From: a virus
Strand: one strand, 5' to 3'
Length of the DNA: 64,000 nucleotides
IMG/VR virus record: IMGVR_UViG_3300002350_000001
Shown here: in pieces, positions 11,839 to 18,045 of the stretch
Position numbering within the stretch: the first letter of the stretch is position 1
Layout: every line of letters starts with the position of its first letter
Notes under the pieces: model-generated
What the model was told of the DNA's origin: nothing
What the model saw: the letters and a program-made list of their open reading frames with translations, nothing else
Databases searched by the model: none
Translations under genes and position numbers: made by a program

Positions 11839-12806
11839 TATAGTACTCCAGGTGTACCGAAGTTTGTTATATACTTTTCTAAAATTTTATCTACAACAAG
11901 ATTTCCAGTACCGCCAAAAGATTCTTTTTCAAATTCAATTCTAAATTGATCTGTTGAATATTTAGATACATATCTCTTGTGATAATCAAGCTTTCCACAT
12001 TTTAGATCTTCAATTAACATCATAACTGCATCTTTAATATCGTACGGAACTACCTTATACCCAGTTTCTAGTGAGAATAAATAGTTCCATCCCATTGGAA
12101 ATGTAACTCCTGGAGCAACTGCCAAAGTGTTTGGGCTGTCTTCTGTATCATATAAATACAAAGAATCTGAGTATGCCAAAGGAACTCCCTTGGGGTTTCC
12201 AGTCATTCTTATATATGAATCATCTTGCTGCACCCAGTCTTTAATGATAGATGTTTTATCTTTAGTAAGCAAATAATTCCATTGACCTATAGCTTGTGGA
12301 TCTTGACTATAATCCCAAACAAGTGAGTTATTTTCATATGCCTTTAAAATTTTGTATGTTCTATCCCATACTGGCATAAAGTCAGTATTGTTTCCTATTG
12401 TTTCATACCATGATCTTTCAAAATAAAAACCGCCAGGAACCATGGCATCTATTATTGCTCTTGCTAAACCTTCTAGTTGAACATATTCATTTTTTTCTGT
12501 TGCAGTAGTTCCAAGAGAGTATGGGTCAACATATGGCCTCATAATCTCAAGATTGTCCTCTACAACTATTTCTGACTGCTCACCATCAACATCATCGTAA
12601 ATTGCTAAATAGTATGATTCATCATATGTATTAAATAATGAAGGCAATGTATACTCTATCTTAGAGTCTGAGTTAGATGTTAAGTTTTCTTCTACCTCTA
12701 CAACGTTTCTAGAACTATCTTGAATAACAAGGATATAGTCACTATTTGCCTGTGGCACATCATAGGTAATTGAAAGCGGATATGGTGGTAAGCGCAAAAC
12801 CTGCAT
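11838..12806 (-). CDS. Head-tail connector (adaptor) with N-terminal extension (322 aa)
   Basis: C-terminal GYKVVPYDIKDAVMMLIEDL...VDKILEKY matches the gp15/gp6-type adaptor pattern. Confidence 0.7.
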   Translation of the reverse strand: MQVLRLPPYPLSITYDVPQANSDYILVIQDSSRNVVEVEENLTSNSDSKIEYTLPSLFNTYDESYYLAIYDDVDGEQSEIVVEDNLEIMRPYVDPYSLGTTATEKNEYVQLEGLARAIIDAMVPGGFYFERSWYETIGNNTDFMPVWDRTYKILKAYENNSLVWDYSQDPQAIGQWNYLLTKDKTSIIKDWVQQDDSYIRMTGNPKGVPLAYSDSLYLYDTEDSPNTLAVAPGVTFPMGWNYLFSLETGYKVVPYDIKDAVMMLIEDLKCGKLDYHKRYVSKYSTDQFRIEFEKESFGGTGNLVVDKILEKYITNFGTPGVL

Positions 12807-13162
12807 TATATTTTGCCGTAATGTTTAGCTACTTCAGCTGGAGATGCCTCACGGACACCTTTTTGCTTAAGCCACTTTACAGACTCCTCCTTTGTGACAA
12901 TGTTATACCCCTTTTCAAGGCTTCCCACGCCACTCCAATGAAGATTCTTTGCTGAAAACAAAGCTACTTTCTTTTTTGGAGACTCTTGTTCCTTTTTTGC
13001 TTTTGTTTTTTCTTCTGTAGGTACAAAAGGAAGTATTGCTTCTAATATCTCTACCTTAGTATTTGCACCGACAAGATCAATATGATTCTTTTTAGCATAT
13101 GCTCTTAATTGTGGAACTGTCTTTTTCTTAAATTCTTCTACTGCTTCTAATGTTGTTGTCAT
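12806..13162 (-). CDS. Small head-module protein with Rho-N/HeH-like helix-extension-helix motif
   Basis: KKKTVPQLRAYAKKNHIDLVGANTKVEILEAI; GGAGG RBS supports the ATG at 13162 (track starts at GTG 13174). Confidence 0.55.
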   Translation of the reverse strand: MTTTLEAVEEFKKKTVPQLRAYAKKNHIDLVGANTKVEILEAILPFVPTEEKTKAKKEQESPKKKVALFSAKNLHWSGVGSLEKGYNIVTKEESVKWLKQKGVREASPAEVAKHYGKI

Positions 13163-13195
13163 TTTTTCCTCCACTGCTATTATATCAGAATTACA

Positions 13196-13408
13196 TTATT
13201 TGTACAAACTTTGTGGCTTTCTAACTCCTGCTGGAGTTCCACTCATAATTATATTTTCTCCAAAATTTGCTGTAGGAATACATCCCATAGCAAATCTTTC
13301 TGTAATAATTCCATTAGGACCACTAATAACTGTTCCTATTCCACCAGCAGCTATTGTACCGTCACCACTATGCTGATGGTCTACTACTGGATTTCCTGGA
13401 TATGACAT
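13196..13408 (-). CDS. 70-aa paralog of the major capsid N-terminal arm; candidate capsid accessory protein
   Basis: YPGNPVVDHQHSGDGTIAAGGIG versus capsid YPGAPTVAHQHAGDGAFASGDIG; AGGAG RBS. Confidence 0.7.
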   Translation of the reverse strand: MSYPGNPVVDHQHSGDGTIAAGGIGTVISGPNGIITERFAMGCIPTANFGENIIMSGTPAGVRKPQSLYK

Positions 13409-13427
13409 ATTGTCTCCTAATGCGTAA

Positions 13428-13453
13428 GGAGGGCAGGTTTTACGCTGCCCTCC
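13428..13453. terminator. Stem-loop immediately after the major capsid gene
   Basis: GGAGGGCAG-gttttacg-CTGCCCTCC, 9-bp perfect stem; no clear U-tract on the minus strand. Confidence 0.55.
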
Positions 13454-13474
13454 CTACAAAATAGTTTTTACAAA

Positions 13475-14614
13475 CTATGCGGTTGGGTCAACTGCTGCAT
13501 CTGCATAAGCAACTGCATCAAGTTCTTCCCACTGAATACCAAAGCGGACGAATACTGTGTATTCAATTGTATCCTTCTTTGGCTTGTATTCACGGTTTAC
13601 AGTGATATCACGCTGGAAGCCCCATACACGGTTTGCAGGGAATGTCAAATCGACATAATCTGCTGGGTAATAAGGAACTTCTTGTACATCAATTCCGAGA
13701 ACACGAGTTGTACGTGCTCCACCGAATGTCTGACCAACGCCATCAAGATATGACTGACGATTGCGCTCTGTACCACCAGTACGTGGTGCAAATGCTTCAG
13801 CAATAGCGTCAGCAAGTGTACCGTTGTTCTTAACGATACCCTGGAATGCATCTGTACCAGCATAGAACTTTAGGTTCTGCTTTAGTGCACGATACTTACG
13901 TGGCATTGCAAGGATAATATCCTGCATTACTTCTGTTGTCCAGTTGTCATCGCTTACTGTAACAAGTGCTTCGTGAGCATCTGATCCAGTTGTAACCTTG
14001 TTAACGAAACCTTCCATAATTGAAAGGAATGGTGAAGTTGTACCATCGCCATTAATAGCTAGGTCTTCAATATCATTAGCAAATGCATTGGTCATCAAGC
14101 GAACTAGATGATCTTCCAACGCACCTCCTTCAATATTGTCTTCAAGTGCTTCAGTTGAAACTTCCCAGTCAAGACGAATCTTCTTTGTAGTCAATTCAAC
14201 CTTTGAGAATGTTGCACCTGCGTTTGTGTAGTCGTTGCTTGCCTGTGCAGCAGCACGGATTACACGCTCACCAACGTTAACTTTTTCAAGTTCCATTGTA
14301 TTTGCTCGCATAGTAACTCTACGACCATCTTTGGCGAGAACTGTTGCATCCCACACATAGTCGATGAAGCGGCGAGCCTGCTCTGGAAGTAGTATACCGC
14401 CTGGAGTACCAGTTGGATTAACTGCGTTTGGTCCTGCGGTTGTACCCCATGCAGGGGTTGCAATGTTACCTAGGTTTGCACCAATATCATTTGATGTAGG
14501 GCTTGTAGCCGTAGCACCTCCGATATCACCTGAAGCAAAAGCACCATCACCTGCGTGTTGGTGTGCTACGGTTGGAGCACCTGGATAATTTTTTACGATT
14601 TCTTGTTCCGACAT
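13475..14614 (-). CDS. Major capsid protein, HK97 fold (about 379 aa)
   Basis: GGILLPEQARRFIDYVWDATVL...EALEDNIEGGALEDHLVRLMTNAFANDIEDLAINGDG; AGGAGGTG RBS before ATG 14614; downstream of the protease. Confidence 0.92.
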   Translation of the reverse strand: MSEQEIVKNYPGAPTVAHQHAGDGAFASGDIGGATATSPTSNDIGANLGNIATPAWGTTAGPNAVNPTGTPGGILLPEQARRFIDYVWDATVLAKDGRRVTMRANTMELEKVNVGERVIRAAAQASNDYTNAGATFSKVELTTKKIRLDWEVSTEALEDNIEGGALEDHLVRLMTNAFANDIEDLAINGDGTTSPFLSIMEGFVNKVTTGSDAHEALVTVSDDNWTTEVMQDIILAMPRKYRALKQNLKFYAGTDAFQGIVKNNGTLADAIAEAFAPRTGGTERNRQSYLDGVGQTFGGARTTRVLGIDVQEVPYYPADYVDLTFPANRVWGFQRDITVNREYKPKKDTIEYTVFVRFGIQWEELDAVAYADAAVDPTA

Positions 14615-14641: not shown

Positions 14642-15970
14642 TTATTTAAATAGGTCGGCATTTGTGAGGAAACGGCCGCCCCATAGGGATTTTTGAGTTC
14701 TCGTTTCTGAAAACTCCTGCACGATCTCGCCTAGATCGCCAGACTTGCGGAAAGCTGTATCTTTTTCTACAAGATCAACTCGCTTTCCAAACTCATTAAA
14801 AGAACCCTTTACTTGGCTAACCTCACTTGCTACAGACTTTACTTCACCTGTAACGGTTTCAAGGGACTTTGTTATTGCATCAACATTGGCTTGCATAGCC
14901 TTAACTGTTTCTGCAAGATTGCTCAAGGCATTAGTTAGAGAATTATTAATATCGGCAACAGACTTTGCAATCTCTGCTGTTGCATCAACAACTGCATCTA
15001 CTGACTTTTCTGCTGCTTCTTCAGCAACTGGAGCATCTGCAAATGGTGCATCTACTTCTGGTGCTGCCTCTACCGCTGGCTCTGCTGCAGGTGCTTCTTC
15101 CGCAGGAACTTCTGCTGGAACATCTGCTACAGCGTCTGCTGGAGCCTCTGGAGCAACCTCAACATTTTCAACAACTTCGTCAGACTTTGCAATCTCTACA
15201 TTATCTACGATTGTGGTTTCTTCTGTCATAGGATTTTCCTCCTTTGTCATCTTAATTGTTCTAATGCCTTTTGCACTATCAACTAAGAACTTTACTGTTT
15301 TTATATCTTCTTGATCTTCAACAAATCCAATATTCTTCATAGAAGAATTACAAGATGGACAACTTTCATCTGCATCTTTTGATAAACGAACAATGTCATC
15401 CGTACCGCACCAATAAACTGTATCAACTACAGCTTTTGCAAGATATCCACCAAGCTGACCCTTTTCAATTGAGATAACATTAGCAAATTGATTTGCTGGA
15501 TTGTCTACAAGAGAAAGTTCATGTAAGTCGTATTCTTTAATTATACGCACTGATTTATCAACTTTTTCATCGTACATATCTTCAGTTTTTGTTATATTGC
15601 CACCGATAGAAAAACCAGTTAGTGTGCCGTCAAGAACTTTTTCCCAAGTATCTTGTGCACCTTTTGAAACATATGCAGAGACGTATACACCACTATAAAA
15701 CTTTTTATCTTTTGGGTCAAAATAACGATCTTCTTTAAAAGAAACAACCTTTCCTACAGCGCTAGGCTGATGCATTTCACGAAGATTTCCACGGAATTTT
15801 TTAAATGCCTCTATACTTGCTTCTGTGGTAACAATGTCACCCTGCTTATCTACATTATCTAAAGTAGCAAAGCCAGAAACAATGCGGCGTTCTTGATCTA
15901 CCTTGCCAATTGGCATAGAGAAGCGAACGTTGTCACCATCAGTAATCCAGTGTGCTTTATTTATAGTCAT
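14642..15970 (-). CDS. Prohead protease (HK97-type) fused to a Zn-ribbon, acidic linker and scaffold-like coil (442 aa)
   Basis: RIVSGFATLDNVDKQGD...LREMHQ...GFSIGG...LHELSLVDNPANQ protease motifs; WCGTDD...CPSC; Ala/Glu/Pro-rich linker; heptad C-terminus. Confidence 0.88.
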   Translation of the reverse strand: MTINKAHWITDGDNVRFSMPIGKVDQERRIVSGFATLDNVDKQGDIVTTEASIEAFKKFRGNLREMHQPSAVGKVVSFKEDRYFDPKDKKFYSGVYVSAYVSKGAQDTWEKVLDGTLTGFSIGGNITKTEDMYDEKVDKSVRIIKEYDLHELSLVDNPANQFANVISIEKGQLGGYLAKAVVDTVYWCGTDDIVRLSKDADESCPSCNSSMKNIGFVEDQEDIKTVKFLVDSAKGIRTIKMTKEENPMTEETTIVDNVEIAKSDEVVENVEVAPEAPADAVADVPAEVPAEEAPAAEPAVEAAPEVDAPFADAPVAEEAAEKSVDAVVDATAEIAKSVADINNSLTNALSNLAETVKAMQANVDAITKSLETVTGEVKSVASEVSQVKGSFNEFGKRVDLVEKDTAFRKSGDLGEIVQEFSETRTQKSLWGGRFLTNADLFK

Positions 15971-16010: not shown

Positions 16011-17654
16011 CTATTGAGATGATCTTCCCTCACCTTGTGGATTTCTTCCAGAAATAGTAGTAGGGGAATCTGAAGCATTATTTGTTCTCTCTGCGTCTCT
16101 TTCTCTGGTGCCAGCTAAGTTTGCTCTGGCATCAGTGGCTTGTCGTGGAGACATTATAAAAGGGCTATCACCATCTGGGCGTTGTGACATATTAAGCATT
16201 TCACGAGCCTCATTAGGGGTGATAACCTGGGTTTTTACATAGCGCTCAATAATCTGAGACTGTGCAATTTCATCTGTTAGAGTCAATTCATTAAACTTTA
16301 ACTCTAAAATATCAGTCTTTTCTTTAATAATCTTATTTACAATTTTCTCTAAATGACGTTGAGCTGGGCGAGATACCTGCTCTTTAAATGTTCTGTCTTG
16401 AGAAAGAGCTGCAGCAATAGCAGCAGAATCAGATCCACCTAGTTTGGAAATAGGGACTTGATGGGCTATTAAAATCTCATCACGGTTTTGTTTACGATAT
16501 TTTTCAAACGATCCTTCTTGAACGCCACTTTCAATAGGCTGCATATTGAAATCAACTTTATTATTATCAGTGTCTCCAGGAAGAGGTATATAGAGGGTTC
16601 TATGATTCTGACCCTTTAAGCTAGTCTGCATAAACCTAAACATCTTGTCTTCTGCATCAGCAGATAGCTTTGCACCTTTAACAGTAATTATATATCTTGG
16701 CACCGCTTTATTTTGGAAATAATCAATATTGTATTGTGCTGCTAAAGAGTCTCCTATTAAAGCAGAAATTGCAGACAAAACATCTGGAACACCGTAATAT
16801 GTATTTAATGGAGAATACTGCTTAAAATGCAAGATTTCATTTGGTCTTGGATCGGATGTAAGTGGGTTATTGTTTGTAGCTCCAAAATTTCTAAAATATA
16901 CTAACTTCTGTCCAATAATTTGTACATATCCGTCACGTAAACGTCGAACACGAATTGTTGTTGCTGGTATATGCCCAACATATCCAATTTCTCCAGTTAC
17001 CGTTCTACCAATTTCAAGGAATCCATTTCCAGTTGCCTGTACGTCGGTATAAAACTTTTCCATTGTTTGCTGAAATGTGTCTTCATCATTAAGAGATTCT
17101 AGCCAATCACGAACCTCTAACTTCATTCTTTCAATACGGCGACGAGCACGATCTACTTGTTCTGCATCATCATTCATTTCAAATCTAAGCATTGTACGAT
17201 CTGTTAAATCAAATTTATATCCAAGTCCTACAACGTTTTCCACTTTAGCATCAATAGCAGCATGATTAGCAAAAGAAGTATCATAATAGCTTGCTAATTC
17301 ATATGTGTTATACGGTGGTGTAATTACGTCAAATAGACCGTATCCATTTCTATATACCGTTCCAGGATTTATCTGTTTTGACTGAGCTCCGTCTTGACCG
17401 CTTTGAAATGCTCCAGCATTTTCTAAATATCTTGGAGTTGGCTCTACTGCTGGATATCTTGGGCTGTAGACATCTGATGGAGGAACATATTTTGAAATAT
17501 TTCTTGTTGTCCTACGCTTAAAGTTTGTATCTATTCCAGAAAGATCTTTTAATTGATCCCAGGACTTTAAAAATGGATCTTTTTCTTTAAAAGTATTTTC
17601 ATCATGATACTCTGTATTTAAACTTGCTTGAATATATTCAAAATCTTCACTCAT
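16011..17654 (-). CDS. Portal protein (about 547 aa)
   Basis: HAAIDAKVENVVGLGY, GNGFLEI.R, NEILHFKQYSPLNTYYGVPD, YNIDYFQNKAVP, ILIAHQVP, TPNEAREML. ATG 17654 overlaps the upstream stop (track start 17675). Confidence 0.92.
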   Translation of the reverse strand: MSEDFEYIQASLNTEYHDENTFKEKDPFLKSWDQLKDLSGIDTNFKRRTTRNISKYVPPSDVYSPRYPAVEPTPRYLENAGAFQSGQDGAQSKQINPGTVYRNGYGLFDVITPPYNTYELASYYDTSFANHAAIDAKVENVVGLGYKFDLTDRTMLRFEMNDDAEQVDRARRRIERMKLEVRDWLESLNDEDTFQQTMEKFYTDVQATGNGFLEIGRTVTGEIGYVGHIPATTIRVRRLRDGYVQIIGQKLVYFRNFGATNNNPLTSDPRPNEILHFKQYSPLNTYYGVPDVLSAISALIGDSLAAQYNIDYFQNKAVPRYIITVKGAKLSADAEDKMFRFMQTSLKGQNHRTLYIPLPGDTDNNKVDFNMQPIESGVQEGSFEKYRKQNRDEILIAHQVPISKLGGSDSAAIAAALSQDRTFKEQVSRPAQRHLEKIVNKIIKEKTDILELKFNELTLTDEIAQSQIIERYVKTQVITPNEAREMLNMSQRPDGDSPFIMSPRQATDARANLAGTRERDAERTNNASDSPTTISGRNPQGEGRSSQ

Positions 17655-18045
17655 TCTCGTACGCATCTCTTCCATGTTTATTTAATGTATCTTGTGCAGC
17701 CTTCCAAGCTCCAAGATCGTTCATAGATGGAATAAGCCCTTGCTTCATTCTATCTAACTGCTCAGAATGCTCTTCTTCTGAAATTCTTGTTAGGCCAGGA
17801 ATAAATACTGCCTCTCCTTCACCATCATCACCATAATACTTTGCTGCATTCTTAAGTTTGGTAATCTGTGCTATATCTCCACGTACAGATTCAATATTTA
17901 GTACGCTACCTTCTCCATCAGTGAACCATTTTCCATCTGATTTCTTATAAACATATAGACCCCAGTTATATTTTTTTTCAATTACCTGACGACGCACATT
18001 TTTGACAAGTGGTTTACCAGTTTTTTGACTAATTAAAGGATTCAT
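17647..18045 (-). CDS. Hypothetical protein (132 aa), first gene of the portal operon
   Basis: ORF with a leaderless TGGTATACT promoter 7 nt upstream of the ATG. Confidence 0.7.
   Translation of the reverse strand: MNPLISQKTGKPLVKNVRRQVIEKKYNWGLYVYKKSDGKWFTDGEGSVLNIESVRGDIAQITKLKNAAKYYGDDGEGEAVFIPGLTRISEEEHSEQLDRMKQGLIPSMNDLGAWKAAQDTLNKHGRDAYENE

Follow-up and report, generated by a model that had tools for sequence, protein, structure and literature searches.

A Free-Standing Paralog of the Capsid Protein N-Terminal Insert in the Head Module of Uncultured Freshwater Phages

In a group of uncultured freshwater phages, a small protein of about 70 residues is encoded directly behind the gene for the major capsid protein (MCP), and this small protein is a paralog of an insert at the N-terminus of the MCP itself. 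Here, we describe this gene in a window of 64,000 nucleotides (IMG/VR virus record IMGVR_UViG_3300002350_000001), which is a portion of a complete 107.7-kb viral genome, and in related loci. The gene is real, kept by purifying selection, and accessory. We tentatively read its product as a mimic of the MCP insert that acts in trans, is dispensable and would dock at the insert's site during head assembly.

The Head Module and Its Signals

The head module lies on the minus strand in the order portal (16011-17675), protease-scaffold protein, MCP, small ORF, a gene with a Rho_N/SAP-like N-terminal domain and an adaptor-like gene of 322 aa. The protease-scaffold protein (14642..15970, minus strand, 442 aa; Pfam S78 / S78_2, phrog_9427) is a prohead protease of the S78 family fused to a coiled-coil, scaffold-like C-terminal part, and is a candidate partner of the MCP N-terminus. 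It contains a long linker rich in Ala, Pro, Glu and Val, and its C-terminus is almost invariant across the relatives (DTAFRKSGDLGEIVQ ... KSLWGGRFL..DLF) apart from one short variable patch between the two blocks. The MCP gene (13475..14614, minus strand), identified by Pfam PF05065 and phrog_1623 as encoding an HK97 fold, was delimited by its RBS and start codon: translation starts at the ATG at 14614, which has an AGGAGG upstream, and the listed GTG falls inside that RBS. With this start, the MCP is 379 aa long and the match to the small protein covers MCP residues ~9-83.

The small ORF (13196..13408, minus strand; 70 aa, MSYPG...SLYK) was characterized from the ORF listing, BLASTP, hhalign and dN/dS as a free-standing paralog of the MCP N-terminal insert. 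Its ATG start lies 66 nt downstream of the MCP stop codon. An earlier note on this DNA, made from the letters only, had given the gene a ribosome-binding site of its own, and an AGGAG is indeed read 5 nt before the ATG (13414..13418, minus strand); AGGAG or AAGGAG occupies the same place in relatives. Among 80 related IMG/VR loci, every carrier genome has the small ORF 66-72 nt after the MCP stop and with an RBS. Read-through of the stop codon or a frameshift fusion to the MCP was ruled out by an in-frame TAG in the spacer and by the varying spacer length (66 to 72 nt) among relatives. A RiPP precursor or a membrane peptide was likewise rejected upon sequence inspection, as the conserved head module contains no modification genes and no segment of the protein has the length and hydrophobicity of a membrane helix.

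Between the MCP stop and the small ORF lies a G+C-rich hairpin without a U-tract (13424..13458, minus strand). The stem-loop that the earlier note had seen behind the capsid gene is substantiated by its folding energy (dG -32.4 kcal/mol, z=-6.3 vs shuffles) and by compensatory changes in 8 of its 11 pairs among 18 relatives. Every lineage has the hairpin, whether or not the small ORF is present, and it probably serves as a terminator, an attenuator or an mRNA-stabilising element. On the other side, an extended -10 promoter-like site of the next gene (TGATATAAT; 13179..13206, minus strand; promoter scan) overlaps the 3' end of the small ORF. All relatives have the conserved element TCTGRTATAAT immediately ahead of the gene that follows the MCP; where the small ORF is missing, this element adjoins the hairpin, indicating that transcription restarts directly after the capsid gene. 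The extended -10 site is the downstream edge of the small-ORF cassette. Placed between the covarying hairpin and the promoter of the next gene, the small ORF has no promoter of its own and must therefore be transcribed together with the MCP gene, through the hairpin, so that the small protein is probably made late and in lower amounts than the MCP.

The next gene (12806..13174, minus strand, about 118-122 aa) is conserved in all relatives including Streptomyces phages, and was assigned by synteny and by a match of its N-terminal domain to Pfam Rho_N that is below the curated cutoff (E=2e-4). Its C-terminal domain (..ALYS..N..W.G.G.L..GYNIV..) is kept in all relatives, and in some lineages (L008, L061, L064, L073) long acidic stretches rich in Pro, Glu and Val replace the N-terminal domain.

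Homology Between the Small Protein and the MCP

The earlier note had matched the 70-aa protein to capsid residues ~10-75. The match is here extended to residues ~9-83, and the count of 15 of 23 identities in YPG..IG, together with the shared G.I.T...G and GTP.G, was reproduced from the sequences. BLASTP of the small protein against the MCP yields 27/72 identities (E=6e-10), and a profile-profile comparison of 32 small proteins with 31 MCP N-termini (hhalign: 99.2%, E=8.3e-20, 69 columns) places small-protein residues 2-70 on MCP residues 9-83. The two are collinear across the entire small protein. The paralogous part of the MCP gene, codons ~9-83 (GGILLPEQARRF), lies at 14366..14590 on the minus strand, as delimited by hhalign and by relatives without the insert; beyond this segment and the small ORF, no further copies were found in the 107.7-kb genome.

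What the small protein retains are the best-conserved stretches of the insert (YPG...GxG; LG[NC]I.T..FG; GTP.G[IV]..P.Q), and what it lacks are the N-tip of the MCP (MSEQEIVKN) and the entire HK97 body. The middle third is strongly diverged and more hydrophobic than that of the MCP (mean hydropathy 0.75 vs 0.19). The family is narrow: homologues fall into 38 protein clusters of 69-89 aa, down to ~61% identity, and a profile search of 1.8 billion representatives recovered only about six true clusters. The small protein matches no Pfam or PHROG family, 32 members searched at E<=10 giving only scattered single-member noise, and a search of 50,697 phage records gave no match.

The Copied Segment Is Mostly a Clade-Specific Insert

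The earlier note had called the copied segment the N-terminal arm of the capsid protein. It is the N-terminus of the MCP that was copied, but most of the segment is not the HK97 N-arm, as the capsid models PF05065 and phrog_1623 begin only at MCP residue ~73-75. The cultured relatives are Streptomyces siphoviruses of ~130 kb, of which the MCPs (331 aa, 43% identical) align only from residue 72 on ('GGLL.AEQ..RFIDY') and lack the insert. Since both the capsid models and the alignments with the cultured relatives begin at the arm, the copied segment consists of a clade-specific Gly-rich insert followed by ~8 residues from the beginning of the arm, and within the small protein the canonical arm is matched by no more than the final ~8 aligned residues.

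The insert sits between the conserved N-tip of the MCP and the N-arm. Comparison with 87 further MCPs showed conservation of the N-tip (MS.EL.EKVI; here MSEQEIVKN) and of the beginning of the N-arm, and judged from these alignments both are ancestral. The Gly-rich linker in between becomes longer in steps across the family, from ~10 aa in the Streptomyces phages through ~30 aa in a freshwater group of intermediate type to 55-70 aa in the clade of the window (window 14381-14614, L084-L170). The motif type of the MCP switches inside MCP-core clades (L014, L045), from which it follows that the N-terminus of the MCP is itself mosaic.

Selection, Distribution and History

The small ORF is confirmed as a real gene under purifying selection, with a dN/dS of 0.05-0.22 (median 0.14, unsaturated pairs) and a pN/pS below 0.5 in all four sub-regions. 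Had the protein been absent from virions and not conserved, the earlier note would have seen in it a decaying duplication. Either such a partial duplicate or a spurious ORF without function would be in keeping with its absence from so many relatives (45/75), but the low dN/dS, the intact ORF and RBS in 30 loci plus 38 protein clusters spanning 35-90% identity, and the reciprocal monophyly kept since a single old duplication make this reading scarcely credible, and the purifying selection in particular rejects a decaying duplicate.

Among the 75 relatives that could be classified, 30 have the small ORF and 45 do not, while the MCP insert is present in all 75. Mapped on the MCP-core tree, this distribution takes 10 changes, at least 6 of which are forced by well-supported branches, and near-identical MCPs differ in the presence of the gene. 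The loci L031 and L033 have nearly identical flanks and differ by a clean indel of ~245 bp, which is exactly the RBS and the ORF, between the hairpin and the extended -10 (TGgTATAAT). The small ORF is an accessory, promoter-less cassette that is often lost.

In a joint tree, the small proteins and the MCP inserts are each monophyletic (99/98), which points to a single old duplication, after which the paralogs diverged side by side and the small ORF was lost many times, and rules out several independent duplications. The tree of the small ORF conflicts with that of the MCP, as the small ORFs of clade II nest inside the 70-aa type of clade IV (100/100), which indicates that the cassette has been exchanged by recombination. 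Two loci have unusual arrangements. In L057 (3497-5977), an MCP is followed by the first ~14 small-ORF codons joined out of frame onto MCP residues 59-377 and then by a complete small ORF; the two MCPs belong to different lineages (identity to the MCP of the window 87% vs 81%). Either the paralogous segments underwent an unequal crossover, or strains that occur together were joined into a chimera in the assembly. In L015 (670-1841), MCP residues 1-349 join directly to small-ORF residues 27-68, which is either a gene-fusing deletion or an assembly artefact.

No cultured member of this phage clade turned up; the isolated phages of 'Ca. Nanopelagicales' are 39 kb and unrelated in size. MAG bins that contain contigs of the clade (L164-L170) are labelled Actinomycetota and Aquiluna, and also Flavobacterium, Flavipsychrobacter, Polynucleobacter, Methylococcus and Bifidobacterium; such mixed labels are unreliable for assigning a host to this clade.

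The N-Terminal Motif Tracks the Resident MCP

The first ~20 residues of the small protein after YPG vary by lineage and contain HQH, HTH, HAH, HNH or no His. In clade IV, PTV.HQH.GDG is common to the small protein and the MCP. In most of clade I, its HTH subclade, both proteins have HTH..EG with an identical one-residue gap, and in clade III (L041, L052, L060) HxH is missing from both. Over the first 20 aa, identity to the MCP of the own genome exceeds that to the MCPs of other genomes (0.535 vs 0.439, p=3e-4, 10 dereplicated lineages), and this excess is limited to the motif (C-terminal part, p=0.24). At the level of the four clades, pairing each clade with its own MCPs is the best of 24 assignments, for which p~0.04 is the attainable minimum; with only about four independent clades, the evidence for co-variation is suggestive at this conservative value. 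Within the small ORF itself, the motif follows the clade of the resident genome (0.76 vs 0.52) and the body follows the type of cassette (0.68 vs 0.56).

The match of the motifs is kept at the protein level, since synonymous sites have no corresponding excess: codon identity at identical residues is 0.50 for own vs 0.51 for other genomes, and 0.52 vs 0.51 for clades. In L003, both proteins have an identical YPGSPTVSHQH, yet with serine codons of different families. Recent gene conversion is thereby ruled out. The motif is relaxed in both proteins (pN/pS ~0.45), a value that also rules out positive selection.

The earlier suggestion that the HQH motif could bind metal loses ground, as HxH is missing in ~40% of the MCPs of the clade (31/76 scored) and in the clade III pairs from both proteins, and is therefore not essential to the core function of the family. 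A third partner was sought by scanning the columns of the portal, the protease-scaffold protein, the SAP-like protein, p322, p149 and p225 for tracking of HxH; no clean association was found, the best columns reaching p=4e-8 and 1e-7 vs 1e-6 for the MCP-core background. Taken together, the comparisons are suggestive of a common contact that the N-termini of the MCP and the small protein may serve.

Structure Predictions

Predicted alone with AlphaFold2 (62 rows), the small protein reaches a pLDDT of 52, and its only clear feature is a long hairpin formed by residues 19-30 and 33-42. The MCP (50 close relatives) was predicted with a pLDDT of 35. A complex prediction of two MCP copies with the small protein gave an ipSAE of 0.00 with the fold of the partner uncertain, and therefore counts neither way on binding. 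A PDB sequence search with the MCP profile gave no match, and a look-alike search in the ESM Atlas returned only scores < 0.8, which are noise. With 12 Gly among 70 residues and a beta-hairpin at 19-42 predicted at low confidence, the small protein has no helical, coiled-coil character like that of scaffolding proteins or delta domains.

Cys18 occurs only together with Cys43: 13 members of the family have both, 6 have Cys43 only, none has Cys18 only and 13 have neither (family alignment columns 18 and 44). All members with Cys18/Cys43 have HxH. As the two cysteines flank the predicted hairpin, they could conceivably form a disulfide or take part in a His2Cys2 metal site.

The small-protein profile also matches propeller-repeat proteins (E 2e-6 to 5e-4), and an Asp-box/BNR-type blade (S-x-D-x-G-x-T-W) matches it weakly over 22 columns (hhalign 87.6%, vs 0.1% for the MCP insert). 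Such blades are repeated to close a propeller; the small protein is a single copy, contains no Trp and has no Pfam match. Homology to a propeller blade is considered unlikely because the paralogous MCP segment does not share the likeness, and the similarity is read as local to the hairpin only. An ENA contig of 587 bp (P0036) encodes an 89-aa product in which an NHL/propeller-like N-terminal stretch (..GLTIDGEGTIYFADSLNQVVRRV) is followed by the C-terminal 50 residues of the small protein. The junction is exactly at the GPNGIITE motif; the product comes from this one short contig, which may be chimeric.

Possible Functions of the Small Protein

The conserved stretches of the insert are kept in the small protein and the N-tip and HK97 body are absent, which makes molecular mimicry in trans the most likely of the explanations considered, although we hold even this one as tentative. 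In such a mechanism, the small protein would be made late, from a transcript that runs from the capsid gene through the hairpin, and would dock where the insert of the MCP is normally accommodated, on neighbouring MCP subunits or on the procapsid during assembly. There it might act as a sub-stoichiometric auxiliary head peptide that is cement-like or tunes assembly; the cement or decoration role, or that of an assembly modulator, which the earlier note had proposed is plausible. That the first ~20 residues track the motif of the resident MCP suggests that the N-termini of both proteins either touch or use a common site. Poor folding of the small protein alone is expected if it folds on a partner, and its accessory nature, which is also that of known decoration proteins, supports an auxiliary role in the head. 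We infer binding, a place in or on the head and an effect on assembly or stability from sequence comparison. Several points speak against such a mimic. All MCPs of the clade have the insert and 60% of the genomes lack the small protein, so that it is not strictly required at any structural site. If the icosahedral lattice were ideal, the MCP inserts would fill every docking site, and vacant sites are thus a postulate of mimicry. The co-variation comes from about four independent clades, and no column of the neighbouring head proteins was found to co-vary. The middle segment is diverged and hydrophobic, and the small protein and the MCP insert therefore need not bind the same surface.

The mimicry could also be directed at head maturation. 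If the MCP insert were part of a propeptide that faces the procapsid interior and is handled by the S78 protease-scaffold protein, the free copy might likewise enter proheads or engage the protease, and could be a competing substrate, a maturation timer or a small packaged peptide. The insert does precede the HK97 fold, which is the usual place of delta domains and propeptides, the protease has a scaffold-like coiled coil fused to it, many members of the family have a basic C-terminal tail (RASRR, RRRR), and T4 and giant phages target head proteins via shared propeptides (PMC9958956; PMC5694885). However, the small protein carries no cargo beyond the shared segment, lacks the N-tip MSEQEIVKN that is common to all relatives and is the likeliest scaffold contact, and shares no recognisable cleavage motif with the MCP; moreover, the C-terminus of the scaffold is invariant though the motif varies, and no protease or scaffold column clearly tracks the motif. 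We consider this reading unlikely. Somewhat less likely again is that the homology is merely historical and the segment was recruited for a function outside the head, for instance another late function, in which a hydrophobic Gly-rich hairpin would do something new. The diverged middle third with its gained hydrophobic hairpin and weak likeness to an Asp-box blade (87.6% vs 0.1% for the MCP insert) would fit such a recruitment, as would the dispensability of the gene, but its position beside the MCP gene is fixed in all carrier genomes, its MCP-like end segments are kept under constraint and its N-terminal motif co-varies with the resident MCP.

By analogy, a host sensor might recognise the variable N-terminal motif of the MCP, and a co-expressed free mimic might soak up or mis-engage this sensor. 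A small, accessory and patchy gene with very recent gain or loss between near-identical genomes, on a cassette exchanged among lineages, is what such an immune decoy could look like, and the residues that track the resident MCP coincide exactly with the stretch in which the MCP varies most. Yet there is no positive selection on the motif in either protein (pN/pS ~0.45), the conserved C-terminal two thirds are also constrained and would be superfluous for a decoy, no defence-related signal was found, and the idea is built on analogy only; we regard it as improbable. About equally improbable is a cement protein newly born from the MCP's own arm, in which the paired HxH of the MCP and the peptide would form a metal-bridged contact.

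Comparison With Known Head Proteins

Known decoration or cement proteins are made late with the MCP and are thought to bind assembled MCP lattices. Like the small protein, lambda gpD, T4 Soc and Hoc, SPP1 gp12, P4 Psu and L Dec are small, encoded in the head module, dispensable and patchy in distribution; the small ORF lies in the head module, always directly after the MCP gene, and is dispensable among close relatives. They differ in that they have folds of their own, whereas the small protein derives from the N-terminal insert of the MCP and its capsid binding is putative. In Pfam and PHROGs, no sequence or profile similarity of the small protein to lambda gpD, Soc, Hoc, gp12, Psu or Dec was found. 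Extra sequence at the N-terminus of the MCP is also present in the HK97 delta domain and in extensions of the N-arm (e.g., the lasso-like arms of the thermophilic phage P74-26), where it mediates assembly or inter-capsomer contacts. These segments act in cis within the MCP and the delta domain is helical, whereas the insert described here is Gly-rich, in a beta or extended conformation, and also exists as a free-standing protein.

A head protein derived from a duplicated capsid gene is known from T4, in which the vertex protein gp24 is a paralog of the adjoining MCP gp23 (PMC5694885). As with the small ORF, the duplicate lies next to the MCP gene. However, gp24 is a paralog over its full length, has the HK97 fold and takes the place of the MCP at the vertices, while in the present case the copy comprises no more than ~70 residues from upstream of the fold, and the small protein therefore cannot be a lattice subunit. 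Capsid-targeting sequences of the T4 type and propeptides of giant phages are N-terminal segments that are common to head proteins, are removed by the prohead protease and are believed to direct these proteins to the same place in the prohead (PMC9958956; PMC5694885). Here, too, an N-terminal segment is common to the MCP and a small protein of one phage. The T4-type leaders are attached to cargo and cut off, whereas here the segment is the whole 70-aa protein, without cargo, and is found in two proteins only. No described free-standing gene that copies only the N-terminal extension of an HK97-fold MCP was found.

Auxiliary head proteins are common and their origins are mostly obscure. In this case the origin can be read, as an MCP insert of ~70 residues was copied once into a separate gene. 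The resulting cassette is kept by selection and is gained and lost cleanly in a very abundant uncultured freshwater phage group, and genomes that have or lack it provide a natural comparison from which the function of N-terminal extensions of the MCP may be learned. If the peptide does dock at the site of the insert, it would show how a capsid protein can itself give rise to a cement or assembly factor. If it is instead a protease mimic or an immune decoy, it would represent a new kind of self-mimicry in phage heads.
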